From a bacterium (GTDB lineage Bacteria > Patescibacteriota > Minisyncoccia > Phycocordibacterales > UBA2100): a DNA stretch of 64,000 nucleotides. The stretch covers positions 168,092 through 232,091 of the forward strand of contig JAYPJF010000001.1 in NCBI GenBank assembly GCA_038128225.1, read 5' to 3'. The position numbers and the translations under genes were made by a program. Below are positions 25,620 through 57,730 of the stretch, piece by piece; the stretch's first letter is position 1; every line of letters starts with the position of its first letter. The notes under the pieces were generated by a model that worked only from the letters and a program-made list of their open reading frames with translations, did not search any database and was not told the origin of the DNA.

Positions 25620-25997
25620 TTGTGTTGGTATCATGATCGCATGCAGAATCATGATCAGGAACATTTCCGCGAGCGATTACAAAAAGAGCGCCAGGATATT
25701 GAACAAACACTGCGTGAGCGGGGGCATAAAATCGAGGGGCAAGACGATTGGCAAGGCGTTTCTACGGATGTCATAACCGATACCGCCGACGTTAATGAAG
25801 TCGCCGATCAAATCGAAGAGCTCGCAAACAATGTTGCGATCGTCGAAGAACTTGAAAAACGCCTCCACGCCATTACCGCAGCGCTCGCGAAGATCGAAAA
25901 CGGTACCTACGGAATTTGTGACGTATGTGGTGAACGCATCCCACAAGAACGCCTCGAAGCAAACCCTGCGGCTGCAACCTGTACCGCGCACGCATAG
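25620..25997 (+). CDS. DksA/TraR-family C4 zinc-finger-like protein
   Basis: C-terminal motif GTYGICDVCGERIPQERLEANPAAATC. Confidence 0.6.
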   Translation: MCWYHDRMQNHDQEHFRERLQKERQDIEQTLRERGHKIEGQDDWQGVSTDVITDTADVNEVADQIEELANNVAIVEELEKRLHAITAALAKIENGTYGICDVCGERIPQERLEANPAAATCTAHA

Positions 25998-27521
25998 GTG
26001 TACAATACGGACATGAGTTTTGCGCGCATTACGAGCGCACAACCTGACATTCCTCACGCACACCTTGTCGACGTAGAAACCGACGTCGCTCGTGGCCTTC
26101 ATGCGTTTTCAGTGGTTGGTCTTCCAGACAAAGCGGTTGAAGAAGCGCGAGACCGTATCGCGTCCGCGATCAAGCACAGCGGCTTTACTTCACCAAAAAG
26201 TACCAACAAAAAAATAGTTATTTCGCTCGCGCCCGCAGCATTACGAAAAGAGGGTGCGGTTTTTGATGTGCCCATGGCGCTCGGATATCTGCTTGCGGCA
26301 GAAGAAATCAGAGCCGACACTAACACGATGGTCTTTGCAGGCGAGCTTGCGCTCGATGGAAAGGTACGCCCTATTCGGGGCACGCTTTCGATAGCTCTCG
26401 CCGCGAAGACCCGGGGGCTCACCCACGTGTTTGTTCCATACGAAAACGCACCAGAAGCCGCGCTTGTTTCCGGGATCTCCGTGTACCCGGTTACATCTCT
26501 TAATGAACTCGTGGGGCACCTGACCAAAACCAAATTGCTGTCCGTATATACACCTACCCAAGAAACCTCCTCCTCTGAATCCAGCGATGACCTTGAGGCG
26601 ATCCGTGGGCAAGAACATGCTAAACGTGCGCTTGAAATTGCTGCAGCCGGCCGTCACAACATTGCTCTCTTTGGACCACCAGGAACGGGTAAAACCATGC
26701 TCGCGCGTGCATTATGTTCACTACTACCTCCTCTTACTGAAGAAGAGCAAATTGTTGTGACGAGCATCCATTCATACACCGGAACACTTAAGGCCGGTGT
26801 TGCACACCACCCACCATTTCGCGCACCCCACCACACCGCTTCGCATGTTTCTCTTGTTGGTGGTGGTTCAATTCCAAAACCTGGTGAAGTCACGCTTGCG
26901 CACTGCGGCGTTCTGTTTCTCGACGAATTTCCAGAATTTGCGCGTGATTGCATTAACGCGTTACGCCAACCACTGGAAGACCGAGTCGTTTCGGTTTCAC
27001 GAGCGAAAGGCGCGGTGACCTATCCGGCTCATTTTATGCTTGTTGCGGCACTAAACCCGTGTCCCTGCGGTCATTTTGGCTCAGTTCGGTGCACATGCTT
27101 GCCGATCGCAATCGAACGATACCGTAAAAAAGTTTCAGGCCCTATTATGGACCGCATTGACATGTGGGTGCCGGTTGGAAACATTCCCCCCGAAGCGCTT
27201 GCGCTTAGAGGTGTCGGACCGCGTGGAGAGACAGAGGCAGCTCGAGTGCGCGTCGCTGGTGCCCGAGAAATTCAACACAAAAGATTTTCGGACAACAATA
27301 AAGTTAACAGCATGATTTCCGCGCACGATATTGATATTGTTGAGCTTGCTGATACGGTAGAAAAAACTCTGATCGACGCCGCGCGACAACTCGCGCTCTC
27401 TCCGCGAAGCTACCATCGAACAATTAAAGTAGCGCGTACGATCGCAGACCTTGCCGGTTCATCGTCAATAGAAAGCACGCATATGCTCGAGGCGCTTCAG
27501 TACCGACCAAAAGAGTGGTGA
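25998..27521 (+). CDS. comM: Mg-chelatase-like AAA ATPase, ComM/YifB family
   Basis: Walker A FGPPGTGKTM and a Lon-like N-domain. The gene ends with TGA. Confidence 0.85.
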   Translation: MYNTDMSFARITSAQPDIPHAHLVDVETDVARGLHAFSVVGLPDKAVEEARDRIASAIKHSGFTSPKSTNKKIVISLAPAALRKEGAVFDVPMALGYLLAAEEIRADTNTMVFAGELALDGKVRPIRGTLSIALAAKTRGLTHVFVPYENAPEAALVSGISVYPVTSLNELVGHLTKTKLLSVYTPTQETSSSESSDDLEAIRGQEHAKRALEIAAAGRHNIALFGPPGTGKTMLARALCSLLPPLTEEEQIVVTSIHSYTGTLKAGVAHHPPFRAPHHTASHVSLVGGGSIPKPGEVTLAHCGVLFLDEFPEFARDCINALRQPLEDRVVSVSRAKGAVTYPAHFMLVAALNPCPCGHFGSVRCTCLPIAIERYRKKVSGPIMDRIDMWVPVGNIPPEALALRGVGPRGETEAARVRVAGAREIQHKRFSDNNKVNSMISAHDIDIVELADTVEKTLIDAARQLALSPRSYHRTIKVARTIADLAGSSSIESTHMLEALQYRPKEW

Positions 27522-28662: not shown

Positions 28663-29748
28663 TTAAAATGGATTCTTGGCACCACGAATCTCGAAGTGAA
28701 GGTGGGGACCTGTAGAACGCCCGGTATTCCCGACATATCCAATGATCTGTCCCTGTACCACATGCTCACCTGCGCCAACGATTGTACGCGAGAGGTGTGC
28801 GTACAGTGTTTGAGTTCCATTATCGTGACGAATAACGATGTAATTTCCATAACCACCGTTCCAACCGCTTGATCGCGAAATAATCACGTCTCCCGTTGCC
28901 GATGCGAGTACTGGAGTCCCTATTGTCGCCCCCAAGTCAACTCCGTTATATCCGTGAATACCCTGCGTTTTCACCGCATTTGTAACTGGGCGCAAATAGT
29001 ACCCTGAATAGTTGGGAACCCCTGTTGTTCCGCGCACTGTGCTTGTAACCTTTTTAACAGGCTGCGGAATCGCGAGTACTCCATCAGGGACAATTACCAC
29101 CGTCCCTGCGGCGAGCTCTTGATCAGCGTCGATTCCGTTATAGAGCGCGGCTTCCTCAACGTCGCCGCCGTGTTTTTTAATGATATCCCGAATCGTGCCG
29201 CCTGATTTCACGGTATATCGAATACCTGTAACAGGAAGAATAACGAGCTGCTGCCCAGGTTGGATTGCCTGCCCTTTTTTAATGTCATTTGCCCACATGA
29301 TCGTGTTTACTGAAACATCAAACGCCTGAGCTATTCCTGAAAGAGTGTCGCCCTCACGAACAATATAGAGACTGATGTTGGTGTTCTTATTTGAGTTTTC
29401 TTCAATTTCAGCCGAGGTTCCGGAGGGTCCTTCACTTGAAAGCACTGCGGACTCATCAACAATGGTGATGTCACCGCCTCCTTTTGACGGGTTGGGGTCA
29501 ATATTCATCGCGGCCTTAGGAAGCGACATGGTCGCTACCGAGCTTCGATCAAGGCGATACGTTGCGGTATCTGCCTGAATGTTGCCGGTAAAAAACGAAA
29601 GTGCATGAGCAAACATTCCCGCTGATGCAATAGCAGGGGTAAAGGAGCTTACAAGCATTACCACAGGGATTACCGTGTGCACGGCCTGAAAAAGCTTTGA
29701 ATATGTCACCTTCGACGGGACGTCACTCACCGCCTTGGGATCACTCAA
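28663..29748 (-). CDS. LysM-domain M23-family metallopeptidase
   Basis: Two LysM repeats (YIVREGDTLSGIAQAF and YTVKSGGTIRDI) and an M23 domain (HxGVDL...GNTGRSTGPHLHFEI). Confidence 0.85.
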   Translation of the reverse strand: MSDPKAVSDVPSKVTYSKLFQAVHTVIPVVMLVSSFTPAIASAGMFAHALSFFTGNIQADTATYRLDRSSVATMSLPKAAMNIDPNPSKGGGDITIVDESAVLSSEGPSGTSAEIEENSNKNTNISLYIVREGDTLSGIAQAFDVSVNTIMWANDIKKGQAIQPGQQLVILPVTGIRYTVKSGGTIRDIIKKHGGDVEEAALYNGIDADQELAAGTVVIVPDGVLAIPQPVKKVTSTVRGTTGVPNYSGYYLRPVTNAVKTQGIHGYNGVDLGATIGTPVLASATGDVIISRSSGWNGGYGNYIVIRHDNGTQTLYAHLSRTIVGAGEHVVQGQIIGYVGNTGRSTGPHLHFEIRGAKNPF

Positions 29749-33860: not shown

Positions 33861-34193
33861 CTACTGAGAACTCCCCATCATATCGATATGGGTACCCGGC
33901 CACACAGTAAGTGGTTGAATGTACGCGATACAAAAATAAGGAACACTCGCAAGCCCTAAAAGCCATTGTCCCGCATGGTTTGGTGGCCCAAAAAGATATG
34001 TTTTTGTTGACTTAGACCAGATATATGGACCTCCAATCGGTGGCCCCAAGAGCGCGTAAATCACTTGATTATAACAAGGGTGCACTAGCGAAGCCTGGCC
34101 GCCGAAAGGAAATGCGTGTGATACGGCTGGAGTCCACATTAACATTACGAGCAGAAGTAGTATCACGAGCCCAACGCGCATATTTGTAAACAT
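33861..34193 (-). CDS. Small secreted hypothetical protein
   Basis: Signal peptide MRVGLVILLLLVMLMWTPAVSHA. Confidence 0.4.
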   Translation of the reverse strand: MFTNMRVGLVILLLLVMLMWTPAVSHAFPFGGQASLVHPCYNQVIYALLGPPIGGPYIWSKSTKTYLFGPPNHAGQWLLGLASVPYFCIAYIQPLTVWPGTHIDMMGSSQ

Positions 34194-34244
34194 ACATGCA
34201 TTATAGATGTTCGGTAGCTCTTTCGTGCATGATACAGTGGATAG

Positions 34245-35180
34245 GTGGAGTGGTTACGCACACATCCGATCACCGCAACTCTCTTAGGGACACTTGCGCT
34301 CGCCGTGATTGGCGGCGTGTTTGTGGCGAACCGGCTCGCCGTCGATCCAGGAGCCTCGTACGGATCATGGAATCTCAGTGGGGCAGGAAAATTTAACCCA
34401 TCAGTTGGTGGAACCATGGTTTTTGGAACCGCGCCAGAACAATACTCTGAAGATGACTTGCGGTCGTTGCTGGAAACAACTCAAGGACCAACCTACGCTT
34501 CTTTGGTTCCGCAGAATACCGAAACCACGGGGAGCGCTAACGGTTTATCATTACAAGACGACGGCACGTATATTATTGATGACCTTGAGGCGCTTTTTTC
34601 GCGCCTCGCACCCACTGCGCAAATTATTAAACCTGCTAACACGGATGAGGAGCAGACTCTTTCCGATGTGTATGCATATGTACCATCTGGGATTGCCGGA
34701 ACATCTTCACCGCAAAAAGTAAAAACGCGCGCCCAAACAGATCTTTATAATTATGGAAATGATGCTGGTTCGTATATTGAAACGTACTATGAAAATTGGG
34801 GACGAGATCAAGCGCAGATACTGAAACGCTTTTTCGAGGATCGTACAAGCCCTAAAAAACGCGAGGAGGCACAAAAGATCGCCAGCGCCCTGGTTCAAAC
34901 CGGAAAACAGCTGCAGGCAGTGACTACTATCCCACAAACGATGGCGAATGCCCATGCGTCACTTGCTCAAAACTACATCGACGTAGGCACTGCGCTTACC
35001 CCCGTACTCACTGCGCAAGACGATGCGGATGTTATAGCGACAATCGGCACGTACAATCAAACCGCAGAACTCTTTGCTAAATCATTCATTCAGGTCGCAA
35101 ACATTTTTCGCGCGTACGAGGTTACTTTTGCAGATACAGAACCTGGTCACGTTTTTGTGTTTAAGAATGCCGCACTGTAA
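34245..35180 (+). CDS. Hypothetical N-terminally anchored protein, first gene of the T4SS-like cluster and a paralog of 35237..36115
   Basis: One TM helix. The C-terminal domain resembles that of the next ORF. Confidence 0.5.
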   Translation: MEWLRTHPITATLLGTLALAVIGGVFVANRLAVDPGASYGSWNLSGAGKFNPSVGGTMVFGTAPEQYSEDDLRSLLETTQGPTYASLVPQNTETTGSANGLSLQDDGTYIIDDLEALFSRLAPTAQIIKPANTDEEQTLSDVYAYVPSGIAGTSSPQKVKTRAQTDLYNYGNDAGSYIETYYENWGRDQAQILKRFFEDRTSPKKREEAQKIASALVQTGKQLQAVTTIPQTMANAHASLAQNYIDVGTALTPVLTAQDDADVIATIGTYNQTAELFAKSFIQVANIFRAYEVTFADTEPGHVFVFKNAAL

Positions 35181-35236
35181 AAAACCTATTCACGCCCGTT
35201 GATTCTGAGCGTGCGCGCCCTTGATATACTACATAT

Positions 35237-36115
35237 GTGGACCACGAGCCTCGTAGCGCTACGCGTTTGCTTTTTATCGTTGCCGCACTTTCGATTGCGG
35301 GGCTACTCGCGGGTTTTGGTGCCACACTCGGAAAATACCGCGCCCCTGTCGCATCGGTAACTCCAACATGGGTATCCGCAACAAAGACTTTTGAGGAAAT
35401 CGACACTGATGGTGATACACTCCCCGACTGGCAGGAGACGCTGTTAGGGACCGATCCTGATAACATCGACTCGGATGGAGACGGAAAAACAGACTCCTTT
35501 GAGCCGCGCGCCAGTTTAGCCCTCAAAGCGAGCGCGGTCTCTGCGCCCAAATCGGTCACTGATGCCGCCGCGGAACGTCTCGTGCGCCAGTACTTAACAC
35601 TAAAACAAGCAAATGCATACACGCCAGAACGCGGAGAGCAGATCGCCTCAGGTCTTATTGAAAGCATTTATGCAACAGTTGCCTTTGAGCCATTCAACGA
35701 GAGCAGTCTCACGCTGGTGCCTGCGAATAAAGAGAGTGTACTCATGTACCAAGAGCGCTTTCGTGACACGATGGCCGCGTTCCTTGACCTTCAAGGCTCA
35801 GAAATTGCTTTGTTTGGAGAATATGCGAATACAAAAAATGAATACTACCTCGCGCAGCTTGAAGGGCGCGCTTCGTTATATGAATCAGTGGCACAAAAAA
35901 TACTTGCGATCCCAACACCCAACGACATGGCAGCCGAACACCTTGAGGTCGTGAATGGTCTTGCGTACTTTGGTGCTGTATTGCGCGACCTCGCACGGTT
36001 TGGCAGAGACCCGCTCACAGCACTTTCTCTTTTGCGCGCATACAACGAGGCGGAAGAGTATGTCGGGAGTACATTCACTGCACTTTCTTCTCGTCTAAAT
36101 ACACAACAGCTATGA
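35237..36115 (+). CDS. Hypothetical N-terminally anchored protein with a Ca-binding-like D-x-D-G-D repeat
   Basis: Motif DTDGDTLPDWQE...DPDNIDSDGDGKTDSFE. Confidence 0.5.
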   Translation: MDHEPRSATRLLFIVAALSIAGLLAGFGATLGKYRAPVASVTPTWVSATKTFEEIDTDGDTLPDWQETLLGTDPDNIDSDGDGKTDSFEPRASLALKASAVSAPKSVTDAAAERLVRQYLTLKQANAYTPERGEQIASGLIESIYATVAFEPFNESSLTLVPANKESVLMYQERFRDTMAAFLDLQGSEIALFGEYANTKNEYYLAQLEGRASLYESVAQKILAIPTPNDMAAEHLEVVNGLAYFGAVLRDLARFGRDPLTALSLLRAYNEAEEYVGSTFTALSSRLNTQQL

Positions 36116-38379
36116 GTAAATTCGTATACATACCCGCATTGCTGCTCTTAAGCATCCCGATGTGGGTATCCGCTGCGGTCACTTTGGACACAGTGCCGAC
36201 AGATGGTTTCGATATGTCAGGCACTGCTCCTCCGGGGTCAACGGTTACTATCGTGGGCCGCACAAGTCGCGCAACATGTCAGACAACGGCGGATACTAAC
36301 GGCCGCTATACATGTAGCTCGTTCGATCGATCACCCCAAGACGGTGAGACCCTTGAACTCCAGTCAATTGAGAACGGCGTTCGCTCTCCAATAACAGAAA
36401 TCGGAAATGGCGTCCAATTAACTGACGCCTCCCGGGAACGATATAACTTTCAACGCGAAGGAGTTTTTGGATGCGCCGCGGGCGCGTACGCAATGCCTGT
36501 GGGAACACTGCGAGCGATCAGTGGCGTATACGTCCCCGTGAACGACGCCGCGGTAACACTTAATACAGGGTATCTGGTTTACAAAGAGTGCGTGCTGGAC
36601 GGAGTTGTGCGCTCAACAGCTGAGTCGGCAACTGCTGCATTGTCCACAGGGGGGCTTCGCTGGCTCAATGAAGGGAGAAACGGGAACACCCAGTTTATTT
36701 CAAATCAGGAAGCTGAAAAACTCGCCCTTGCTGACAAGAAATATCTTGAGTTTTTGAGAGAATACCGAACCAATGCGCTTTGTGAACCATTCCAACAACG
36801 TGGTCGTGTCGCCGTCGCGAAAATGTACCTGACCCGCCGTGACCCAACAGCCGCATTCCAGTGTACAGCGCCGGTAAACGGCGCCGACCTTGAGACATGT
36901 ATCACTGTAGGAGATGACTTGCGTACCTGCGGAGGCCTACCAGGGTTTATTAAACTTGTACGTGATTCAAATAATAACCCTCTCTTTGCCGCTTTGGCAC
37001 TTGATCGAGAAGCAGCAAATCAGTCGGTTCGTCGCATACAAGATGTCTGGGATCAACTGGATTGGAGCGGTGGCATTTTGCCGCTCGAGGAAGTTGTTTC
37101 AACGGCAACCGAAACAGGGGAGGACCATTTGGAATATCGAACACTTACCCCGGGGTTTCTCATTGCTGCAGCGATGGAGCAGTTCACCACATCGGGGTTT
37201 AGGCAACTTGAAAGCGCCTCTGAAATTGATCAGATTGTTGGTGCGCTTTTTTCTGGTCTCACCACACAAATCGTTGCTGACGCCCGCGGCTTATCTGGGC
37301 TTACAGAAAGTAAAGGAGGACAGGCTCCATACCTTAATCGTCTTACAGCAGAGTCGTCTGCCCGCGTACGCACAGGGGCAACGAACGCCGCTTTAAGCGT
37401 CCTTGGTTCTTCGCTCGAAGCGGAAAATCAATATAACCAGGTCAAAAAGTCCACAATTCAAGAACTCGAACGTTCGATAGCTCGCCTCAAGGCAGCAGAA
37501 GATGCGTGCTGGAATCTTTTAATACCCGCAGTTCAGGCTATTGCACGAGAGTGTGTGCGCACAGAAACAAGCACCAACACGCAAGGAGAGCAAGTAACAA
37601 CATGCGTTGAATACCGGACGATTCCGCTTGCCATTTCAACCTCGACACGCAGGATCACCGAGGGCGTGGTTGCGCTTTCAGTATCGGCAAGTACCACGCT
37701 TCAAGCCGGAGCCTCACTTGCATTCACGGTTCCGCAAAACACTCTCATGAGCAGCGGCTCGCTCGGATTAACAACTGCTTCTGCAGGCGAACTTGGCCCC
37801 GGAACTAATGTTGGCCTTCCAATAAGCGGGACCGTTGCGCCAAGCCCTGGTGGCCGGGCGACGCTCTCGGTAGGGTCGTTTTCGTTCTTTAGTGGCGGCT
37901 CTCTTTCTTTTGATTTGTTCCAGGGGGCTTCGCTCCCTTTGGGTGAAGTGCGTTTTCCTGTGACCGCAGTGTACCCATACACAATAGCCGTCGCGCTTTC
38001 AGTTGAAATTGCCCGATTGTATTCGGACGATGTTGCGCAAGATAGCATCAACCCGCTTCTCAATACTATTCGAACCGATGTACGAAAGTCTGACGAAGCG
38101 ATCGTGTTGCTGCAACGTTTGGTAAACGATGTACGAAACACGTCATCGCAAACCGTGCAACGTCTTGCGCTTGAACGACTCGATACTCTAATTTCCCAAG
38201 GCACTGTTCACACCGCGTATGATGTAAAATCAGCACAATCTCAAAACGAGAGCGTTAAAAATGCTATGGAGGATCTTGTAAAAACCACGATCGAAGAGTG
38301 GGGCACGGGCAGTGGGTGGTGCAACGCTGAAAATCCTACCGTGGTCCAAATGTGGCTCGACCGCTGGCGCGCCGATTAG
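36112..38379 (+). CDS. Large secreted protein (755 aa), a candidate surface or adhesin component of the T4SS-like cluster
   Basis: Signal peptide MSKFVYIPALLLLSIPMWVSAAV. No recognisable catalytic motifs. Confidence 0.55.
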   Translation: MSKFVYIPALLLLSIPMWVSAAVTLDTVPTDGFDMSGTAPPGSTVTIVGRTSRATCQTTADTNGRYTCSSFDRSPQDGETLELQSIENGVRSPITEIGNGVQLTDASRERYNFQREGVFGCAAGAYAMPVGTLRAISGVYVPVNDAAVTLNTGYLVYKECVLDGVVRSTAESATAALSTGGLRWLNEGRNGNTQFISNQEAEKLALADKKYLEFLREYRTNALCEPFQQRGRVAVAKMYLTRRDPTAAFQCTAPVNGADLETCITVGDDLRTCGGLPGFIKLVRDSNNNPLFAALALDREAANQSVRRIQDVWDQLDWSGGILPLEEVVSTATETGEDHLEYRTLTPGFLIAAAMEQFTTSGFRQLESASEIDQIVGALFSGLTTQIVADARGLSGLTESKGGQAPYLNRLTAESSARVRTGATNAALSVLGSSLEAENQYNQVKKSTIQELERSIARLKAAEDACWNLLIPAVQAIARECVRTETSTNTQGEQVTTCVEYRTIPLAISTSTRRITEGVVALSVSASTTLQAGASLAFTVPQNTLMSSGSLGLTTASAGELGPGTNVGLPISGTVAPSPGGRATLSVGSFSFFSGGSLSFDLFQGASLPLGEVRFPVTAVYPYTIAVALSVEIARLYSDDVAQDSINPLLNTIRTDVRKSDEAIVLLQRLVNDVRNTSSQTVQRLALERLDTLISQGTVHTAYDVKSAQSQNESVKNAMEDLVKTTIEEWGTGSGWCNAENPTVVQMWLDRWRAD

Positions 38380-38382
38380 AAT

Positions 38383-40449
38383 ATGTTTTTCCCAAGAACA
38401 AAAAGTAGACTGCGCCCGTTTTTGTTAGTAACACTGATCATGTTCTCTTTGCTAACACTTGGGGCAACAGCGTATGCCGCATCACCCCCGGCTCCTGATG
38501 TGTGTGCTACATACAGATATTTTCCGCCTTTCGAATGCTTTGGCCGGTGGGCAGCAGAATTTCTAGGAGCGGCATTTTTAATTATTACCGGCTTCATCTT
38601 GGGTATTGTTGGAGTCGTTTTTAACAAACTGGTTGAAATTTCAGTAATTGATTTTGCGACATTTTACGACCCAATGAAAACAGCAGTCGAGCTTGGGTGG
38701 TCAACGTTTCGCGACGTCGCAAATATCGCTATTATTGGCGGTTTTGTATTTGTTGCCATCTCGATGATCTTGGGAGTGGAGAAGTTTGGCGCGCGCCGGT
38801 TTGTGGTGAATATTTTGATTGCTGCGGTACTCATCAACTTCAGTCTATTTTTTACTAAAATGATCGTTGATGTTTCCAACTTGTTTGCTTCACAATTCGC
38901 ACAAGCAATCAGCACGAGTACGACAAGTGCAAATATCAGCATTGGCCAAGTAGCGGAGCCTGTCGGTATCGCTGAAGCGTTTTTAAGTTACTTAAAGATT
39001 TCTAGTGTGCTGGATTCATATGGGGCGTTGCAACAACTCGGATCAAACACACAGTCTGGATTCCAGGTGCTGCTGGCAGCATTCTTGGGTTCTGTTTTTT
39101 TTATGCTCGCCGCACTGGTTTTACTGTACGCCTGCGTGCTGCTACTGGTTCGCACCGTCATGATTATTATGCTACTTCTCCTTTCTGCACTCGCGTTCGG
39201 GGCATACGCTGTGCCCACATTCTCGAACTGGTTTGATCGGTGGTGGAAAGAGCTGGTAAAACACGCTCTATTCGCTCCACTACTTATGCTTTTCCTATGG
39301 GCTACGGCCGGAATTTCTCGCGCACTCAGTGGCAGTGAAGGGTCACTTGGCTCGCTTGTCACTTCGCCCGACAGCAGTGTATCCGTAGGGACTGTGGTGA
39401 ACTTTTTTATCATCATTGGCTTACTGCTCGCATCAATCAAAATCGCAAATAGCTTTTCTGCTACAGCAGCAAAACATATGCCGAACTGGAAAGGAGCCGC
39501 CTCGTTTGCTGCAACATTCGGTGCAAACAAATGGTATCGGCCAGTACGAAACCTCGCTCGCTACGGGCTTAGCGCGCGCGCAAATCGAATACTTGAAGGT
39601 GAGAAAGGCGCGCGCATACGTGGAGAATTGGCCAATCTTGAAGAAAATATAAGGAAAGGAACAGCCTCAGGAAATGAAAAAGCTCGCGCGGCAGCGCTCC
39701 AGCGGCGCCTTGGTAACCTTACTGCCGATGCGGAAGGGAGGTTTGGATTCAAGGAGACGTATCTTGGCAAACAAATAGCGGGGTTTGGTAAAATTCTTAA
39801 GGAAGGTCCAGGAAAGGGTGGCGTAGCTGCTTCGCAGCAGAAAGCAGCCCAAGCAGAAATCGAACAAGCTGAGAAAATTAGAGCACCAAGGAGTGCCGAA
39901 AAACAAGAAGCTTTCGAAGCTGCTTTGAAAGATAAGAATGCGGTTGCACAGAAAATCCTACAAGACGCAAAAGCAAGTGAGCAAGCGGCGCGAAGTGAGG
40001 CGGAAAAGCAAATATCACAACTAGAAAGAGAGAGGGAAGTGTACCGAGAATTAATGGGGGCCGGTGATACTGAAAATGCCGCAGCAAACTACACAAGGAC
40101 CGAACAAGCTCTTGGCGAACAGCGTGCACGCATAGTGAAGGCGGCGCAGTCTGTCAAAGAAGCGGAGCGTACACTTGCAAACACCCCATCGGAAGCCCTC
40201 AAGTCTGCCCAGGCCGTTGCAAAAACTGTACAGAACGAGCGTATTGAAACATATGTGACCAACAAGTTCCCAGAAAGTTCGTACAAGCGAGAGTCAGCGA
40301 TGTCACAGCTCAGAAAAACAAAAGAGGACAAGGACAAGGCAAAAATTCTAGAGAAAGGAATCAAAGCGGCGCAAGAACTTTCTGGCGAAGATGTGGGCCT
40401 CAAAAAACCTACTGCTGCTGAATCAGGTGTTGAAAAGAAAGCTGCATAA
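38383..40449 (+). CDS. Polytopic membrane protein with a long C-terminal charged coiled-coil, VirB6/TrbL-like. Assignment is by topology and gene context.
   Basis: Signal peptide followed by at least six hydrophobic helices, then a K/E/A-rich tail. It lies directly upstream of the PrgI-like and VirB4-like genes. Confidence 0.5.
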   Translation: MFFPRTKSRLRPFLLVTLIMFSLLTLGATAYAASPPAPDVCATYRYFPPFECFGRWAAEFLGAAFLIITGFILGIVGVVFNKLVEISVIDFATFYDPMKTAVELGWSTFRDVANIAIIGGFVFVAISMILGVEKFGARRFVVNILIAAVLINFSLFFTKMIVDVSNLFASQFAQAISTSTTSANISIGQVAEPVGIAEAFLSYLKISSVLDSYGALQQLGSNTQSGFQVLLAAFLGSVFFMLAALVLLYACVLLLVRTVMIIMLLLLSALAFGAYAVPTFSNWFDRWWKELVKHALFAPLLMLFLWATAGISRALSGSEGSLGSLVTSPDSSVSVGTVVNFFIIIGLLLASIKIANSFSATAAKHMPNWKGAASFAATFGANKWYRPVRNLARYGLSARANRILEGEKGARIRGELANLEENIRKGTASGNEKARAAALQRRLGNLTADAEGRFGFKETYLGKQIAGFGKILKEGPGKGGVAASQQKAAQAEIEQAEKIRAPRSAEKQEAFEAALKDKNAVAQKILQDAKASEQAARSEAEKQISQLEREREVYRELMGAGDTENAAANYTRTEQALGEQRARIVKAAQSVKEAERTLANTPSEALKSAQAVAKTVQNERIETYVTNKFPESSYKRESAMSQLRKTKEDKDKAKILEKGIKAAQELSGEDVGLKKPTAAESGVEKKAA

Positions 40450-40453
40450 ATAT

Positions 40454-41104
40454 ATGTTGAACTTGAGCAACCTTGATCCCGAGCTGCGCAAAGAGCTTGA
40501 AACACACATTGCAACACTCCCTGTCCCCGTTAAAAAGGCAATGGAATCCGCTGACACATCTCGTCTGCTGCGAGATTTTGCTAAAAAATACCAACTTCAT
40601 TTAGACCAGTGGGGGAAACTCGAAACGGAAGTGTACATGGTCATGGTCGGTCTTGCACCAATACAAGCCCTTGCTTCAAACCTGCAAGTCGAACTTGGCA
40701 TCGGAAACCAGCTCGCTGGCCAGCTTTCAGCTGACGTTAACACTTCTATTTTTGCCCCCGTTCGTAAGGAGCTCGAACATCAGCTCGATCATGTTGCTGC
40801 GCAGTCAAAGACAGGAGCGCCTATTGAGGACATGACCGCGCAAATACTTGAAACGGCACGGCCCAAGCCGCCACAAAATACCGAAACACCGGTTATTGTT
40901 AATAGCGAGACACAGCAAAACAGCGTGACTGAAACACGTCCTGGGCAGGTAACGCCAGATGATACCCAGCCACAGCAAAAAGAATCCTCGCCAGAACAGA
41001 AGGCGGAGAAAACCGGTCCAACATCAGGGGCGTATGCGCCAGGCAAGCCAAGTAGTGAGCGCAAAGAAGTCCATGACGATCCGTATCGTGAGTCAGTTGA
41101 GTGA
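40454..41104 (+). CDS. Hypothetical protein with a Q/P-rich C-terminus, part of the T4SS-like cluster
   Basis: ATG at 40454. The track ORF begins at 40391. Confidence 0.45.
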   Translation: MLNLSNLDPELRKELETHIATLPVPVKKAMESADTSRLLRDFAKKYQLHLDQWGKLETEVYMVMVGLAPIQALASNLQVELGIGNQLAGQLSADVNTSIFAPVRKELEHQLDHVAAQSKTGAPIEDMTAQILETARPKPPQNTETPVIVNSETQQNSVTETRPGQVTPDDTQPQQKESSPEQKAEKTGPTSGAYAPGKPSSERKEVHDDPYRESVE

Positions 41105-41156
41105 ATTTATGCCACACCCATGCGTGCATGCAGTATATCGTTGATATAATGCTTCC

Positions 41157-41669
41157 ATGCAGTTCCAAGTTCCTCAATTCATCGAAGTCGAAGATAAGAT
41201 CATCGGCCCATTGACGTTTAAACAATTTCTATACGTTGGAGGCGGTGCGGGAATCTCATTCATTCTATGGCGCTTGCTGCCGCTCTGGGTAGCAGTACTC
41301 CCTATCCTTGGAATTCTCGGGCTCACCGCAGCACTCGCGATGGGGCAGTGGAATGGCCGCCCATTCATTACCGGACTTGAAAATAGTTTTTATTACCTTT
41401 TGAGTAAAAAATTGTACTTGTGGAGCCAACAACGCAGCCGTAAAAAACCTGAACAAGAGATTGTGGGGAAAGTGTTAGGAAAACAAGAGGTGTATATCCC
41501 GCGACTTGCCGATAGCAAACTACACGAACTCGCGTGGTCACTCGATATCCACGAACGTGTTGAAAATGCACGATTTCGTGATGTTCCTGTTAACGCTTCA
41601 GAAAACGTCGCCGCAACACCAGATGAGGATTTAGCGCTCCGCATCGCGCGCAGCGCACAAATTAGATAA
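41157..41669 (+). CDS. PrgI/VirB3-like small membrane protein
   Basis: N-terminus MQFQVPQFIEVEDKIIGPLTFKQFLYVGGGAGISFILWRLL matches the PrgI-family pattern of a (V/I)PK motif, a hydrophobic hairpin and a G-rich turn. Confidence 0.6.
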   Translation: MQFQVPQFIEVEDKIIGPLTFKQFLYVGGGAGISFILWRLLPLWVAVLPILGILGLTAALAMGQWNGRPFITGLENSFYYLLSKKLYLWSQQRSRKKPEQEIVGKVLGKQEVYIPRLADSKLHELAWSLDIHERVENARFRDVPVNASENVAATPDEDLALRIARSAQIR

Positions 41670-41671
41670 CT

Positions 41672-42331
41672 ATGGAAACAAAAGCAACCAGAAAAGCTTC
41701 GCAAGAATTTGTCCCCATTTCTGAAGTGCGCGATGGGGTTGTGGTGCTTAAAGACGGAGGCATGCGTGTGGTTCTTATGGCATCGTCTTTAAACTTTGCC
41801 TTGAAATCTGAAGACGAGCAGACTGCGTTCATTCTTCAATTCCAAAGTTTTCTAAACTCTCTTGATTTCACTACGCAGATTTTCGTGCAGTCGCGCATGC
41901 TCGATATTCGCCCCTACATTGCAACACTTGAAGCCGCGTACAAAGAGCAGCTTGATGATCTCATGCGAGTACAGATTCGTGAGTATATTGAATTCGTAAA
42001 AAACTTTACTGAAGCGGCAAATATTATGACAAAGAGCTTTTTCGTAATAGTGCCTTATACGCCGGCATTTATCTCATCTCGCACAAATCCTTTTGGAAGT
42101 CTTTTTGGTGGAGGGAAAAAACGCGATGATGCGGCCGCGAACCGTACGTTCGAAGAAAGCGTGTCACAGCTTGAACAGCGTGTTGCGATCGTACAACAAG
42201 GACTTGTTCGCTCAGGTGTTCGTACCGTCCAGCTTGGAAGCGAGGAGGTTATCGAGCTTTTCTACAAACTCTTTAATCCTGGAGAAAGGTCGAAGCCCAT
42301 CGCACTGGTTGACGAAGGTGCGCGTACATAA
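41672..42331 (+). CDS. VirB4/TraE/PrgJ-like conjugal-transfer ATPase, N-terminal fragment. It ends at an in-frame TAA.
   Basis: VPISEVRDGVVVLKDGGMRVVLMASSLNFALKSEDEQ is typical of the VirB4 N-domain. It is in the same frame as 42335..44200. Confidence 0.7.
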   Translation: METKATRKASQEFVPISEVRDGVVVLKDGGMRVVLMASSLNFALKSEDEQTAFILQFQSFLNSLDFTTQIFVQSRMLDIRPYIATLEAAYKEQLDDLMRVQIREYIEFVKNFTEAANIMTKSFFVIVPYTPAFISSRTNPFGSLFGGGKKRDDAAANRTFEESVSQLEQRVAIVQQGLVRSGVRTVQLGSEEVIELFYKLFNPGERSKPIALVDEGART

Positions 42332-42334
42332 GAT

Positions 42335-44200
42335 ATGGGAATACTCGATATATTATTTAAGAAAAAAGACCAAGGCAAAGCCGCTGTGTTACCGGTATTG
42401 CCTGCGGAAATTTACCAACAAGGAGTCCTTGATCTTCAGGATGTTATTGCGCCACATGCGCTCCGGATTAATCCGCGGGAACTCGATTTGGGAGAAAAAA
42501 TTTCAAGAACGTTTTTTGTTATCTCATACCCGCGATTCCTCACTACGGGATGGTTTGCGCCCATCATTAACATCGACAAAGTCATTGATATTACTATTTT
42601 TGTACACCCGATCGACACTAATGAGGTTTTGCGAAAATTCCAGAAAAAAGTAGCTGAGGTGCAGAGTCAGATCGCACAACGTGAAGAGAAGGGGATGGTA
42701 CGTGACCCGATGCTCGACACCGCTTATTCTGACCTCGAAACGCTGCGGGACCAACTCCAACAGGCTCAAGAAAAACTTTTTGATGTGGGGCTGTATCTAA
42801 CTTTGTATGGCGATACACGTGAAGAGGTTGATAAAGCAGAGTCTGAGATCCGCTCAATCCTCGAATCTCGCCTTGTATACCTGCGTCCGGCACTGTTCCA
42901 GCAAGAACAAGGATTTAAAAGTACGCTTCCGCTCGGGACCGACCTTATAAACATACACACTAAACTCAACTCATCACCCCTTTCAAGTATTTTCCCTTTC
43001 ATTTCATTCGATCTTACGTCAGACCGCGGCATTCTGTACGGCATCAACCGACACAACTCTTCACTCATACTGTTTGATCGTTTTTCTCTCGAAAACTACA
43101 ATTCGGTGACTTTTGCAAAATCCGGTGCTGGTAAATCGTACACCACAAAACTCGAGATTCTGCGTTCTCTGATGTTTGATACCGAGGTTATCATTATCGA
43201 CCCTGAGCGCGAGTATGAGTACCTCGCGGAAACCGTTGGGGGCCGCTACTTCAATATTTCTCTCTCTTCAGAACACCACATCAACCCTTTCGACCTTCCT
43301 GTTCCGCGAGAAGATGAAAACCCGGCAGATGTGTTGAGGAACCAGATCATTTCGCTTGTGGGGCTGGTGCGTATCATGCTTGGTGGACTCACTCCCGAAG
43401 AAGACGCAATTATCGATAAAGCGATTACGGAAACATACGCGCTTAAAGACATTACCGCCGATGCTGATTTTACTAATATCGAGCCCCCGCTACTCTCGGA
43501 CTTTGAATTAGTGCTCTCTGGCATGGAAGGTTCAGAGTCTCTCGTGCAACGGCTTTCAAAATACACCAAAGGGTCGTGGGCAGGTTTTATGAATCGTCCC
43601 ACAAACGTTGATATGAACAAGAAACTCATCGTCTTTTCAGTGCGCGACATGGAAGACGATCTCAAACCGGTCGCAATGTACATTGTGACGCACCATATCT
43701 GGAATGCGGTGCGTAAAGAACTCCGCAAACGGCTTCTGGTGATCGATGAGGCGTGGTGGATGATGAAATCTGAAGATACTGCATCGTTCCTGTTTGGCAT
43801 CGCCAAACGCGGTCGTAAATACTATCTTGGCCTTTCGACCATCACTCAAGACGTTGCGGACTTTTTAAACTCACCATACGGTCGCGCTATGATCACCAAC
43901 TCATCGATTCAATTACTCCTCCGACAGTCACCAACATCAATTGACCTCATTCAAGAAACATTCAAGCTTTCTGATGAAGAAAAGTACCTGTTACTCGAAT
44001 CCGACGTGGGGGAGGGGATATTCTTCGCAGGGCTAAAGCACGTTGCGATCAAAGTCATTGCTTCGTACACAGAAGACCAGATTATTACTTCCGATCCATC
44101 ACAAATTCTTGCTATCAGAAAGGCAAAAGAGGAGTTGCGCTCAACCCAAGCGTTACAAGAAGACCAGGTGCCAGGAGTAAGTACCCAAGCAGCACTATGA
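42335..44200 (+). CDS. VirB4/TraE/PrgJ-like conjugal-transfer ATPase, ATPase portion
   Basis: Motifs FFVISYPRFLTTGWF, Walker A KSGAGKSYTT and Walker B LLVIDEAWWMM. Confidence 0.8.
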   Translation: MGILDILFKKKDQGKAAVLPVLPAEIYQQGVLDLQDVIAPHALRINPRELDLGEKISRTFFVISYPRFLTTGWFAPIINIDKVIDITIFVHPIDTNEVLRKFQKKVAEVQSQIAQREEKGMVRDPMLDTAYSDLETLRDQLQQAQEKLFDVGLYLTLYGDTREEVDKAESEIRSILESRLVYLRPALFQQEQGFKSTLPLGTDLINIHTKLNSSPLSSIFPFISFDLTSDRGILYGINRHNSSLILFDRFSLENYNSVTFAKSGAGKSYTTKLEILRSLMFDTEVIIIDPEREYEYLAETVGGRYFNISLSSEHHINPFDLPVPREDENPADVLRNQIISLVGLVRIMLGGLTPEEDAIIDKAITETYALKDITADADFTNIEPPLLSDFELVLSGMEGSESLVQRLSKYTKGSWAGFMNRPTNVDMNKKLIVFSVRDMEDDLKPVAMYIVTHHIWNAVRKELRKRLLVIDEAWWMMKSEDTASFLFGIAKRGRKYYLGLSTITQDVADFLNSPYGRAMITNSSIQLLLRQSPTSIDLIQETFKLSDEEKYLLLESDVGEGIFFAGLKHVAIKVIASYTEDQIITSDPSQILAIRKAKEELRSTQALQEDQVPGVSTQAAL

Positions 44201-45225
44201 GTCGTATTCTCTTTGTTCTTCTCCTTTTAATACCGTGGTCAATAAGCGCCTTTTCTTTTCCGCCACTGGCTGTCGAAAATCCAATTCAAGTTACCTTAAC
44301 CCCTACAACCCCCAAACCTGGTGATACGGTCATCCTGCAGGCAAGTAGCCATATCGTTGATCTTGATAGATCGGTACTCGCATGGAGGATTAATGGCGCG
44401 GTTGTAAAAGGAGGCGTCGGTGAAACTCAAGTGCACGCCGTCATGGGAGTGCTTGGTGAGCCGCTCACGATACAACTTGTTACGGAAAGTTTTGAAAAAA
44501 ACGTATACGAGAATATGTTTCAGGTGTATCCAGCAAATGTGGTAATTGCGTGGGACGCAAACACGTATGCACCAGTTTTTTTTAAAGGAAGATCCCTACC
44601 TTCTCCTGGAGCCACGGTCACCGCGTACGCAGTGACACAGTTTGCGACAGAAACGACCATCATTGAACCTCAGGCGCTTATGTATGAGTGGTCGTTGGAT
44701 GGGAAAACACTTCCTGGTGGTAGCGGTATCGGGAAAAGCTCGGCTACATTTACGATGCCTGAATTCCCAGGCACCTATCAGTTACGTGTTGTTGTTCAGA
44801 CCACGGACGGGAAAATTGAAAGCCACGCCGCAGCGCAACTTACATCCCAATCACCTCTTTTGAGTCTCTATCGAGACACACCGCTTCTTGGCGTCGTCCG
44901 AACATCGTCGTTGTTATGGGATCCACGTATTAACGATGCAGAAGCTACGATCGCAGTGGTTCCTTACTACGCATCAATTACAACCGTTAAAGACAAAAAA
45001 CTTTCATACGCATGGAAATTCGATGAGAAACCGTTCCAACATGACCCAAACGATCCGAATCGCATCACTCTTCTTCTTGGTGATGGCCGCGCCCGGCCAC
45101 GAGCAGCGGTTGCAATTCAGCATCGCGACCATATTCTCCAAACCGCTGACCACGCATGGACAATTAACGTGAACCAGGAAGCGGCGGCGGCGAATAACCC
45201 ATTCCTGCGGCAATTTGACCTATGA
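44197..45225 (+). CDS. Secreted hypothetical protein, beta-rich (Ig-like repeats)
   Basis: Signal peptide MSRILFVLLLLIPWSISA. Confidence 0.5.
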   Translation: MSRILFVLLLLIPWSISAFSFPPLAVENPIQVTLTPTTPKPGDTVILQASSHIVDLDRSVLAWRINGAVVKGGVGETQVHAVMGVLGEPLTIQLVTESFEKNVYENMFQVYPANVVIAWDANTYAPVFFKGRSLPSPGATVTAYAVTQFATETTIIEPQALMYEWSLDGKTLPGGSGIGKSSATFTMPEFPGTYQLRVVVQTTDGKIESHAAAQLTSQSPLLSLYRDTPLLGVVRTSSLLWDPRINDAEATIAVVPYYASITTVKDKKLSYAWKFDEKPFQHDPNDPNRITLLLGDGRARPRAAVAIQHRDHILQTADHAWTINVNQEAAAANNPFLRQFDL

Positions 45226-46427
45226 GGAGAGAAATTATTGTCTGGATTGCTGTTGGAGCGATTACTACCACGCTTATGCTGCTCGCGGGGTGGTACTTTT
45301 TTATTCGAAACCAAGAAAATCAACTCACCCGCGTTTTTGAGGGTCGCGGTTTTGAAGCCACACTTCCTGAAGGAAGTGGGGTAGGAAGCACAGGTTTTAA
45401 TTTAGCGAGTGTTTTTTCATCGCCCACAATTGCCGATGCTGATCCGTCAGCAACAAACACAAACACCCCCTCGCGTCTCTGGCGGGTAAGTGTAATCCCC
45501 TCAGTGGGGTTACAGTTTTTTGGTAGCGAACTATATTACGCTGAACAGCCAACAGGTCATGTATTTAAGGCAAATCCAGAAACCGGAGCGGTGGAGCGCC
45601 TCAGCGCAACACTACTTCCCCGTGTAACTGATGTGGTGTGGGTCGCAACATCGTCGTTGATTGTGCAGCAAACGCCTTCCTTAGAAGAAACCTCGTATTT
45701 CGCGGGCCGTATAGAGACCGCGACGACGACAAACGGTGGTTCTTTGGTTGGTGAGTACTTACCAAAAGATGTTTTTGTGGTTGCTCCTGCAGGGGAATCG
45801 GCTTTTATGTACGGTGTGCGCGCAGGTTCCTCGGCGGCATTTATCGAGCGAACAATTTCGGGTGGAGAGAAACGAGTGTGGACTAACCCTCTGTCACATT
45901 GGATAATTAGGCCAACAGGTGCAGGGTATGTGTTTGTCGAACCACCTTCAAGTGTGGCGCTTGGTAGTGCGTTTATGTTTTCACAAAATACGCTTGTCCC
46001 TCTTGTACAGAATGCGTATGGGTTAATGGTGTCGCGATTTGGTGATCTTTTCAGTGAAACGAGGTCAGGAACTCCTGTATTGTTCACTTTTAAGGACGGT
46101 GCCCGCACCGACCTGCCTTTTGTCACATTCGCAGAAAAATGTGTTCGCGACCCAGGTAAAACAACCCGTGTGTATTGTGCCGTTCCGACCGAGTTTCCAA
46201 AACAGCGCGACAGTGTTGACGCATGGTATCGAGGCGAGGTCCACACGAGTGATCGCTGGTTTGCGCTCGATACAGAAACCAATGTGTCTGAACTCGTTCT
46301 CTCGCCTGAAGGGGAGTACGGCGTCCCACTTGACGTTTCTGATGTAACTATTTCGCGCGACGGTCTCTATCTTGCGTTTATTGATACAATAACAAGTACG
46401 CCTTGGGTGCTCCGCGTCAGGGAATAG
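45222..46427 (+). CDS. Hypothetical N-terminally anchored periplasmic or extracellular protein
   Basis: TM helix IIVWIAVGAITTTLMLLAGWYFF. Confidence 0.5.
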   Translation: MRREIIVWIAVGAITTTLMLLAGWYFFIRNQENQLTRVFEGRGFEATLPEGSGVGSTGFNLASVFSSPTIADADPSATNTNTPSRLWRVSVIPSVGLQFFGSELYYAEQPTGHVFKANPETGAVERLSATLLPRVTDVVWVATSSLIVQQTPSLEETSYFAGRIETATTTNGGSLVGEYLPKDVFVVAPAGESAFMYGVRAGSSAAFIERTISGGEKRVWTNPLSHWIIRPTGAGYVFVEPPSSVALGSAFMFSQNTLVPLVQNAYGLMVSRFGDLFSETRSGTPVLFTFKDGARTDLPFVTFAEKCVRDPGKTTRVYCAVPTEFPKQRDSVDAWYRGEVHTSDRWFALDTETNVSELVLSPEGEYGVPLDVSDVTISRDGLYLAFIDTITSTPWVLRVRE

Positions 46428-46428
46428 T

Positions 46429-46824
46429 ATGCGTGTATTTAAAAAATTACGTTTAGCAATTTCTCGAGTAGTGCCGAGTTTTGCGGCAACATTTCAACCA
46501 ATCACCGACGATTTTGAGCGGAACAGTTTTTTGCTCTCGGCAATGAAATCAGGGAGTGTTGCTGAATTTGTAAGCAGCGCGTTTAAAATCGCGATTGTGC
46601 TTGGAGCTATGTTTGCAGTGTTGAGAATTGGGTACGCTGGATTTTTATACATGACCACCGATGTGCTAGGTGACAAGGGGAGGGCGCGATCAATTCTTAC
46701 AAGCACCACACTAGGACTCGTGCTTCTTCTTGGGGTTTTCTTGATCCTCAACCAGATCAACCCCGAAATCCTCAAGCTTAAAATTCTCTCTTCTGAACAA
46801 AGCGCGCCTGAAGACCGTCGTTAA
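46429..46824 (+). CDS. Small two-helix membrane protein, pilin-like (VirB2/TrbC-like topology)
   Basis: Two hydrophobic helices, AFKIAIVLGAMFAVLRIGYAGFLYM and TLGLVLLLGVFLILNQ. Confidence 0.4.
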   Translation: MRVFKKLRLAISRVVPSFAATFQPITDDFERNSFLLSAMKSGSVAEFVSSAFKIAIVLGAMFAVLRIGYAGFLYMTTDVLGDKGRARSILTSTTLGLVLLLGVFLILNQINPEILKLKILSSEQSAPEDRR

Positions 46825-48028: not shown

Positions 48029-48277
48029 CTACCTCTTACGAGCAAGCACCCCTCGTAATGTTTCGATAATGACTGAAAATGGCGCCACAGCAACTTCTCC
48101 TGTAGGCATGATGGTTTTATCATGTATTGAAACCCCTTCTTTTTTAAGAAGCACACACACTGCTCTGGTACGCCTTTTTATCTTGTTGCGAAGAACCGCT
48201 TTATCTGCGGTCTTTTTTGACACCACAATACGCACACCGGCACCGTTGTTTGCTTTTATAAGAAATAAAGGGGTCAT
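48029..48277 (-). CDS. rnpA: Ribonuclease P protein component
   Basis: NKIKRRTRAV motif, positioned between rpmH and yidC. Confidence 0.65.
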   Translation of the reverse strand: MTPLFLIKANNGAGVRIVVSKKTADKAVLRNKIKRRTRAVCVLLKKEGVSIHDKTIMPTGEVAVAPFSVIIETLRGVLARKR

Positions 48278-48406
48278 CTAGATCCCGAGTCGGGTACGCC
48301 CCTTTCGCCGTCGTGAGGCGAGCACACTCCCACCAGCACGTTTCCGCGCGATAAAACCATGGGTTCGCGCACGCTTTCTCTTCTTTGGTTGATATGTTCT
48401 TCGCAT
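48278..48406 (-). CDS. rpmH: 50S ribosomal protein L34
   Basis: Reverse-strand translation reads [42 protein letters not shown]. At 42 aa it is below the track cutoff. Confidence 0.85.
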
Positions 48407-48541
48407 ACCCGCATGGTACTTTTTTTATTACATTCGGCAAGCTTTTTGTGTTGTGCACAGGTTATGCACATACTGCAACACAGAAAGGTCTTTTGTGTGC
48501 TATCTGGGACTCGAGACGCCCATGTATAATGCCGTGTACGT
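48407..48541. other. rpmH-dnaA intergenic region carrying DnaA-box-like motifs (TTATGCACA at 48462..48470). It is part of the candidate oriC.
   Basis: The box matches the TTATnCACA consensus. Confidence 0.35.
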
Positions 48542-57666: not shown

Positions 57667-57730
57667 TGACTCGCGCTGTTTTAATTGTATTGTTGCCACG
57701 GAAAAGCAGATCGAGGAAAGGAGTGGCGAA

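Follow-up and report, generated by a model that had tools for sequence, protein, structure and literature searches.

A probable Patescibacteria-clade type IV secretion operon beside dnaA in a Kaiserbacteria-like genome

A stretch of 64,000 bp from contig JAYPJF010000001.1 (assembly GCA_038128225.1, positions 168,092 to 232,091; hereafter the window) of a bacterium of the Patescibacteriota, or candidate phyla radiation (CPR), contains a compact gene cluster which an earlier note had read, from the letters alone, as a divergent apparatus resembling a type IV secretion system (T4SS). The question raised by this locus is what kind of machine it encodes: a conjugative element, intact or decaying, a device for DNA uptake, or a structure with which the cell meets its host. 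The cluster is very probably the chromosomal T4SS of the Patescibacteria clade in its Paceibacteria (Kaiserbacteria-like) form, derived from the monoderm MPF_FATA machinery, vertically inherited and located beside oriC. This system has already been described, between 2023 and 2025, near the origin in nearly all Paceibacteria, and only the details of the accessory genes are new here.

Composition of the operon and its VirB4 motor

Eleven plus-strand open reading frames (ORFs), designated A to K (Table 1), were found to be tightly packed into positions 34245–46824, neighbouring ORFs being separated by −4 to +56 nt. Of the ten junctions, five fall within 3 nt and three overlap by 4 nt, and all 11 ORFs are intact. 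The co-directional cluster noted earlier was borne out, but not the count of twelve plus-strand genes in a row, as the ORF at 33861–34193 lies on the minus strand. The products comprise a PrgI/VirB3 protein, a VirB4 in two genes, a VirB2-like pilin, a polytopic protein with weak similarity to VirB6, and six further proteins that fit no family.

The ATPase H carries both the Walker A and Walker B motifs that had been pointed out (Table 1). It scored 375.4 bits (cut-off 325) against the NCBIfam model conju_CD1110 over model positions 184–733 of 752, with ~180 N-terminal model positions not covered, and matched Pfam P-loop_TraG with an E-value of 8.5e-25 (87.7 bits, cut-off 25.8). Among PDB sequences, the solved C-terminal domain of a Firmicute VirB4 (4ag5) was matched at 3.5e-43 and the proteobacterial TrwK at 7.6e-8. 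The best VirB4 matches to H, with 85–89% identity, were proteins of Ca. Kaiserbacteria, Paceibacterota and Parcubacteria.

The earlier note had treated 41672..44200 as a single virB4 gene. Significant similarity to VirB4 was indeed found here, as was that of 41157..41669 to PrgI, but the stretch is interrupted by an in-frame TAA and consists of two ORFs, G and H. The product of G matched three NCBIfam models, namely VirB4_plasma (positions 99–233 of 894, E 3e-8) and the CD1110 VirB4 (positions 5–116 of 752, E 6e-5), both under the curated cut-off, and TrsD/TraD (E 6e-6, 26 bits against a family cut-off of 200). Together, G and H are collinear with one unsplit 783-aa VirB4 of a Clostridium perfringens plasmid, of which G corresponds to the N-terminus (E 3e-4). 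These alignments, together with the split found in related loci, show that G is the N-terminal portion of VirB4, with a gene of its own.

Related loci were sampled by a search in which each species was represented by one genome; it returned at least 590 relatives, and the best 80 (L001–L080) were fetched with up to 10 kb of flanking sequence on each side. The genomes carrying them are named as Kaiser-, Nomura-, Taylor-, Campbell-, Adler- or Zambryskii-bacteria or as Paceibacterota. The two genes are split in all 78 loci possessing both, G ends in a stop in every one of them, and the frame of H relative to G takes all three values (in 19, 34 and 25 loci). As it is universal and the relative frames vary, the split is ancestral, and a reading of the in-frame TAA as a pseudogene, a sequencing error or a site of programmed readthrough was ruled out on the same grounds. 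In the window, G and H share a reading frame, and only the TAA and one codon (GAT) precede the ATG of H (42329–42337). Compared with the other loci, this in-frame arrangement is a coincidence.

The membrane partners of the motor were recognised with differing clarity. F, described earlier as PrgI/VirB3-like, exceeds the Pfam cut-off for PrgI (Table 1), and its gene lies directly 5′ of G in 77 of the 80 loci. The pilin-like protein K has the two hydrophobic helices ascribed to it (aa 47–65 and aa 89–107). Taken alone, it scores 20.9 bits against T4SS_pilin, below the cut-off of 26.6, while 45 of 49 orthologs match this family (best E 2.4e-10) and seven match TrbC/VirB2; the pilin identity is thus supported by the profile matches at family level. 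For D, which had been called VirB6/TrbL-like, the membrane topology stood, with ~7 hydrophobic segments followed by a 328-aa tail in which 32% of residues are charged. Its homology to VirB6 is weak but consistent, and its topology and position suggest a candidate of this kind.

Table 1. Coordinates of the genes and features of the locus and of neighbouring genes in the window
Feature	Position	Strand	Description	Basis or remark
Small ORF	33861..34193	-	Small protein with signal-like N-terminus (110 aa)	Divergent to operon; hydrophobic segment aa 7-25
A	34245..35180	+	N-anchored protein (311 aa), distant paralog of B	Transmembrane-like segment aa 9-27
B	35237..36115	+	N-anchored protein (292 aa) with two TSP3-type calcium-binding motifs and a predicted exported helical-bundle domain
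B motif DTDGD	35402-35416
B motif DSDGD	35468-35482
C	36112..38379	+	Putative secreted protein (755 aa): N-terminal bacterial immunoglobulin (Ig) domain, Cys-containing helical core, very long helical hairpin
C, Big_6 Ig domain	36181-36372		N-terminal, aa 24-87
C, beta-rich insert	37546-38013		~160-170 aa at hairpin tip (aa 479-634)
D	38383..40449	+	Polytopic membrane protein (688 aa), candidate "extended VirB6"	Topology; weak TrbL match
E	40454..41104	+	216 aa, no predicted transmembrane segment	Alternative start 40391 possible
E, DPYRE	41078-41092		Conserved C-terminus
F	41157..41669	+	PrgI/VirB3-family membrane protein	Pfam PrgI, E 9.3e-8, 33 bits (cut-off 27)
G	41672..42331	+	TrsD-like, N-terminal VirB4 part as own gene (219 aa)	NCBIfam matches; collinear alignment
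TAA stop of G	42329-42331
H	42335..44200	+	VirB4 ATPase, CD1110 / MPF_FATA type (621 aa)	NCBIfam, Pfam, PDB, Walker motifs
H, Walker A KSGAGKSYTT	43118-43147		aa 262-271
H, Walker B VIDEAWW	43739-43759		aa 469-475
I	44197..45225	+	Putative secreted protein (342 aa), about three Ig-like repeats	Signal-like N-terminus; 80/80 loci
J	45222..46427	+	N-anchored protein (401 aa), TolB-like beta-propeller candidate	Transmembrane-like segment aa 5-23; 68/80 loci
K	46429..46824	+	VirB2-like T4SS pilin (131 aa)	Pfam T4SS_pilin, E 3.8e-4
Recombinase	19913-21124		XerC/D-type	13 kb from cluster
DksA/TraR-type and ComM/YifB-like genes	25620-27521		Zinc-finger gene followed by Mg-chelatase ATPase gene (latter 25998-27521)	~7 kb upstream of operon
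M23+LysM endopeptidase	28663-29748	-	Resembles cell-division endopeptidases	4.5 kb upstream of operon
rnpA/rpmH	48029-48424	-	Between yidC and dnaA
T2SSE ATPase	55927-57756	-	PilB/GspE-type with MshEN domain (609 aa)	Only T2SSE-family ATPase of window

Chromosomal setting and conservation

The cluster is flanked upstream by uvrD and ksgA and downstream by jag, yidC, rnpA and rpmH on the minus strand, followed by dnaA and dnaN. A comparison of synteny across related genomes, as had been proposed, showed that the order uvrD-ksgA-A..K-jag-yidC-dnaA-dnaN recurs among the best 80 loci. Because this order with housekeeping genes is conserved in the genomes of dozens of Paceibacteria species, the cluster is regarded as a vertically inherited core operon and not as an integrative and conjugative element (ICE). 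The G+C content of the cluster (0.46–0.52) resembles that of the neighbouring sequence; it falls to 0.40–0.42 across 48–52 kb of the window. The cumulative GC skew reaches its minimum at ~36–50 kb and climbs steadily from ~50 kb. Skew and G+C dip are consistent with a replication origin adjoining the operon.

Conjugation genes were sought by Pfam scans of 49 window ORFs, 12 belonging to the locus and 37 drawn from the larger ones outside it; another ~15 window ORFs received an assignment by sequence alone or none. Neither a relaxase nor VirD4/TcpA, VirB11 or a lytic transglycosylase was found among the scanned 49, which extends to the larger ORFs outside the cluster the absence previously claimed for the cluster itself. 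No integrase or oriT-type accessory gene lies near the cluster within the 64 kb, and the nearest tRNA gene is >17 kb away. The sole recombinase was rejected as an ICE integrase, being of the XerC/D type. The T2SSE ATPase (609 aa, as against ~330 aa for a hexameric ATPase of the VirB11 type) was likewise rejected as a VirB11, since it scored 454 bits to PilB and 48 bits to VirB11; its gene has ruvB on one side and a polA-like gene on the other, and no further pilus genes were identified beside it. An ICE or plasmid remnant was ruled out by the housekeeping synteny, the uniform G+C content and the fact that no MOB relaxase, type IV coupling protein (T4CP) or integrase was found in the 64 kb. The earlier view that this is no ordinary conjugative element accordingly holds for the window, and what had been named as refuting it, a complete plasmid or ICE with relaxase and VirD4 nearby, was not found there.

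Within the operon, conservation was found to be very uneven. Across the 80 species genomes, H retains 75–89% identity, and G retains 50–75% across species. Median identities to the window, taken as the reference, were compared over the 39 loci with all comparison genes. They amounted to 78.8% for VirB4 (H), 62% for G, 56.9% for DnaA, 49.6% for KsgA, 46% for PrgI (F), 43% for YidC, 39% each for DnaN and the pilin (K), and 26–30% for A, B, C, D, I and J. In all 39 loci the conservation of H exceeds that of DnaA. Judged by these identities, the operon evolves at two speeds, with a conserved motor and fast-diverging exported proteins. The order 3′ of virB4 varies as well, being I-K-J in 33 loci and I-J-K, as in the window, in 21. 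Several of the fetched loci have an additional 0.5–1 kb between virB4 and gene I.

Scans for regulatory and RNA features in the cluster yielded little. Promoter-like sites were no more frequent than expected from shuffled sequence, terminator-like sites fell mostly within coding sequence, and the Rfam and tRNA scans gave no matches inside the cluster.

Exported and accessory proteins

For the six proteins A, B, C, E, I and J, neither Pfam nor NCBIfam gave a family match exceeding its cut-off. An N-terminal hydrophobic segment was found in the products of the minus-strand ORF at 33861–34193 and of A, B, C, I and J, in agreement with the six signal-peptide or N-anchored proteins counted earlier.

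The tandem arrangement of A and B had been taken as a pair of paralogs. This relationship was recovered at profile level, where the two families align with 98.5% probability (hhalign, E 1.9e-15) over the C-terminal 140 aa; pairwise BLASTP gave no similarity (E 7.7). On the profile alignment, A and B are distant tandem paralogs with a common C-terminal helical domain. A is detectable by tblastn in only 17 loci. The calcium-binding-like DxDGD repeat reported earlier is present in B as two motifs (Table 1). The predicted structure of B (pLDDT 79) consists of an N-terminal membrane anchor, a linker with the TSP3 calcium motifs and a helical bundle. A fold search with this model returned generic four-helix bundles only and supported no assignment to VirB5, VirB8 or lysozyme.

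Protein C combines a predicted stalk-like helical hairpin with decorations which differ between species. Its Big_6 domain and the beta-rich insert at the tip of the hairpin are both missing from most of 39 aligned relatives; other relatives are decorated differently, for example with low-complexity stretches rich in Gly and Thr, with an FN3 domain or with additional extensions at the C-terminus. The fold search with C gave only coiled-coil or flagellin-like topological matches with TM-scores <0.25 and no known fold relative, and these matches lend no support to an assignment as VirB5, VirB8 or lysozyme. The family profiles of C and E matched no PDB sequences.

Protein E, for which no Pfam, NCBIfam or PDB relative was found, is built of a conserved N-terminal domain of ~105 aa, a low-complexity and poorly conserved linker, and the conserved C-terminal DPYRE. 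In 62 of the 80 fetched loci, a plus-strand ORF carries the motif DPYR[ED] 2–4 residues short of its stop codon; the motif has a single further occurrence in these loci. With few exceptions, the ORF bearing it is the gene directly 5′ of prgI, and the motif is retained even where tblastn no longer detects the remainder of E because of its divergence. The motif may serve as a docking peptide.

Downstream of virB4, protein I has conserved Trp residues at positions 63, 165 and 273. Its family profile matched a Hoc Ig domain in the PDB (E 3e-4), and its orthologs gave scattered weak matches to Ig, PKD and BiPBP_C; I looks like a protein of three Ig-like repeats. Protein J, with a conserved Cys pair (C307, C319), was tentatively assigned as a TolB-type propeller from the match of its family profile to TolB in the PDB (E 7e-4), with PD40 matched by only 2 of 47 orthologs.

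The small divergent ORF at 33861–34193 has a homolog at the same position in 18 Kaiserbacteria-like loci (36–65% identity), all but one of them with the gene on the minus strand, and its product matched no Pfam or NCBIfam family. Its membership of the system is uncertain. Further upstream, the M23+LysM protein (Table 1) could be the missing VirB1-like hydrolase or an ordinary cell-division enzyme. Homologs are located at the far upstream locus edge, at or before uvrD, in L035, L055, L062 and L072. In L040, a homolog (52% identity, ~7519, minus strand) lies ~1.4 kb upstream of prgI-trsD-virB4, and A–E were undetected there. The ComM/YifB-like Mg-chelatase family, a member of which is encoded ~7 kb upstream of the operon directly after the DksA/TraR-type protein, has been linked to competence.

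Related systems and the function of the machine

The locus agrees closely with a system known from surveys of CPR genomes. Quinonero-Coronel et al. (2025; PMC12102498) described a monophyletic Patescibacteria clade of VirB4 nested in MPF_FATA, and reported TrsD, VirB3/PrgI, VirB6 and VirB2-like pilins near virB4 and, in Paceibacteria, a T4SS close to dnaA, dnaN, ksgA, rnpA and rpmH. The window shares the TrsD-like protein, VirB4, PrgI/VirB3, the VirB2-like pilin and, as a candidate, the VirB6-like protein, has no relaxase or T4CP nearby, and is identical in its chromosomal position; it shows no difference in kind. A, B, C, E, I and J would be among the unassigned (grey) genes in the synteny figure of that study (PMC12102498). 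In the saccharibacterium Southlakia epibionticum, transposon sequencing (Tn-seq) showed that epibiotic growth requires the homologous cluster and its pilins, which are essential for it (Wang et al., 2023; PMC10633639). This Saccharimonadia cluster (SEML1_0006-0019) has an array of six pilin genes as against one in the window, and a peptidase or lysozyme directly 3′ of virB4 where the window encodes the Ig-like and propeller-like proteins. A 2025 review, according to which comEC is dispensable in S. epibionticum, speculates on a pilus conduit (PMC12857230), and a 2026 preprint describes tubular structures at the Minisyncoccota–host interface (bioRxiv 10.64898/2026.06.21.733656).

Conjugative plasmids are more distant relatives. 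The closest plasmid VirB4s, from Streptomyces, Bacillales and Clostridium, are 30–37% identical to H. On the C. perfringens plasmid pSXP-169_2 (NZ_CP143494.1), which carries a CD1110/CTn2-type MPF_FATA system with a VirB4 32% identical to H, the region comprises MobC, a relaxase, a DUF3801 protein, VirD4 (CD1115 family), two unknown genes, PrgI, the unsplit VirB4 (783 aa) and an SLT transglycosylase (850 aa), and has no annotated pilin. Only the order PrgI-then-VirB4 is common to both, and the cluster proteins other than G and H had no matches in the plasmid region. The plasmid VirD4 gene lies 1.6 kb upstream of virB4. In the window no VirD4, MobC, relaxase or SLT was found; its VirB4 is split, and a VirB2-like pilin and other exported proteins are encoded there. 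A separate small N-terminal VirB4-like protein just 5′ of the ATPase, comparable to G, is found in the pGO1/pIP501 Trs/Tra systems (TrsD + TrsE), and the TrsD + VirB4 split is a known arrangement of pGO1-type systems (PMC12102498). However, H is not of that kind but of the CD1110 type, and the TrsD score of G is far under the family cut-off. Unlike the window, pGO1 is a conjugative plasmid with relaxase and T4CP and without a VirB2 pilin. Chromosomal, non-conjugative systems with no VirD4 beside the machine, as in the window, are also represented by Bordetella Ptl, Brucella VirB and Helicobacter ComB, but these belong to the diderm MPF_T type, which possesses VirB11 and, in the outer membrane, a core of VirB7/9/10 (in part after PMC12857230).

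Several points weigh against the assignment to a Patescibacteria-clade T4SS acting at the host interface. The VirB6 homology of D is sub-threshold: D itself reached E 0.006 against Pfam TrbL/VirB6 (16.8 bits, short of the cut-off of 25.9), 8 of 51 orthologs matched TrbL at E <= 0.01 (best 1.6e-4), and its family profile found TrwI (VirB6) in the PDB at E 0.3. No Pfam, NCBIfam or PDB-sequence match to a VirB8-like or VirB1-like protein was obtained among A, B, C, E, I and J, and the predicted models of B and C are helical and neither NTF2-like nor lysozyme-like. A coupling protein or relaxase may be encoded outside the 64 kb of this genome that were inspected, and CPR genomes often carry T4CP homologs at other sites (PMC12102498). 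Finally, the essentiality data come from Saccharimonadia, another class with a different accessory set. The testable parts of the earlier interpretation, a divergent T4SS-like apparatus for host interaction or translocation in the reduced genome of what is a Kaiserbacteria-like CPR bacterium, nevertheless hold. That interpretation is supported but not new, as the system and its origin-proximal context have been published (PMC12102498, PMC10633639, PMC12857230).

From the architecture of T4SSs, we infer how a system with this component set, kept under such constraint, might operate. G and H together would form the VirB4 hexamer, docked on F and D in the membrane; VirB3 is known to be bound by the N-terminal domain of VirB4. 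Without a coupling protein, the motor would extract the pilin K from the membrane and polymerise it into a pilus or tube. In Agrobacterium, VirB4 (and VirB11) is needed for pilus biogenesis and VirD4 is not; no VirB11 was identified among the scanned window ORFs. A wall-spanning scaffold and a host-recognition tip would be built from the exported products, namely A and B (putative calcium-binding four-helix bundles), C (Ig domain and long helical stalk), I (Ig-like repeats) and J (tentative propeller), and the structure would contact the host bacterium and support epibiotic growth. Most likely, the machine produces a pilus or tube where the cell meets its host. Such a structure may only attach or may also penetrate, and it may export Sec-delivered proteins, import host molecules or serve adhesion alone. 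A more specific form of this proposal, in which a T4SS-derived pilus acts as a feeding tube importing host macromolecules (RNA, nucleotides, lipids), with a conserved G/H motor, a fast-evolving exported module (A, B, C, I, J and K) by which host range is set, and E as a DPYRE docking adaptor replacing the coupling protein, is conceivable although rather unlikely.

It is improbable that the operon encodes a DNA-uptake (competence) T4SS comparable to Helicobacter ComB or archaeal Ced, importing environmental or host DNA without relaxase or coupling protein. Such a role would suit a chromosomal cluster in which relaxase and T4CP were not found, in CPR bacteria, which lack nucleotide synthesis (PMC10633639), and a ComM-like Mg-chelatase ATPase is encoded at 25998–27521 of the window. 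Locally, H also resembles the CedB model, though weakly (5.5e-10; 38 bits, cut-off 700), but this is limited to ~70 residues of the P-loop region, and the cluster is without a recognised DNA-binding or ComEC-like component. Moreover, competence in S. epibionticum depends on type IV pili, and deletion of comEC there kills competence and not viability, whereas the T4SS is essential (PMC12857230).

Conjugative or mobilising DNA transfer, with relaxase and coupling protein encoded elsewhere in the genome, is very improbable. The ancestry of the cluster does lie in MPF_FATA conjugation systems, and T4CP genes in CPR genomes, where VirD4 homologs are common, are often far from virB4 (PMC12102498). 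However, relaxases were found in just 103 of 3,035 CPR genomes, and t4cp is dispensable in S. epibionticum where other T4SS genes are essential (PMC12102498). The position of the cluster is fixed among housekeeping genes in dozens of species, and no relaxase, T4CP, oriT-type accessory gene or integrase adjoins it within the 64 kb, the recombinase being XerC/D-type. A decaying ICE remnant, with the stop between G and H marking a pseudogene, would account for that in-frame stop and for the missing conjugation-specific genes, but is effectively refuted by the universal split with its varying frames, known also from pGO1-type systems (PMC12102498), by the conservation of H and G above DnaA, and by 11 intact, closely spaced ORFs.

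The cluster is thus best seen as the Patescibacteria-clade T4SS named at the outset. The locus adds no new kind of system and is a clean Paceibacteria example. It offers three leads: a motor conserved beyond DnaA together with diverging exported parts, the 755-aa stalk-like protein C, and the DPYRE tail encoded 5′ of prgI. With its homolog in S. epibionticum, a T4SS was for the first time shown to be essential to the bacterium carrying it, and the system is among the few clues to how the CPR/Patescibacteria, a large share of bacterial diversity, live on other cells.

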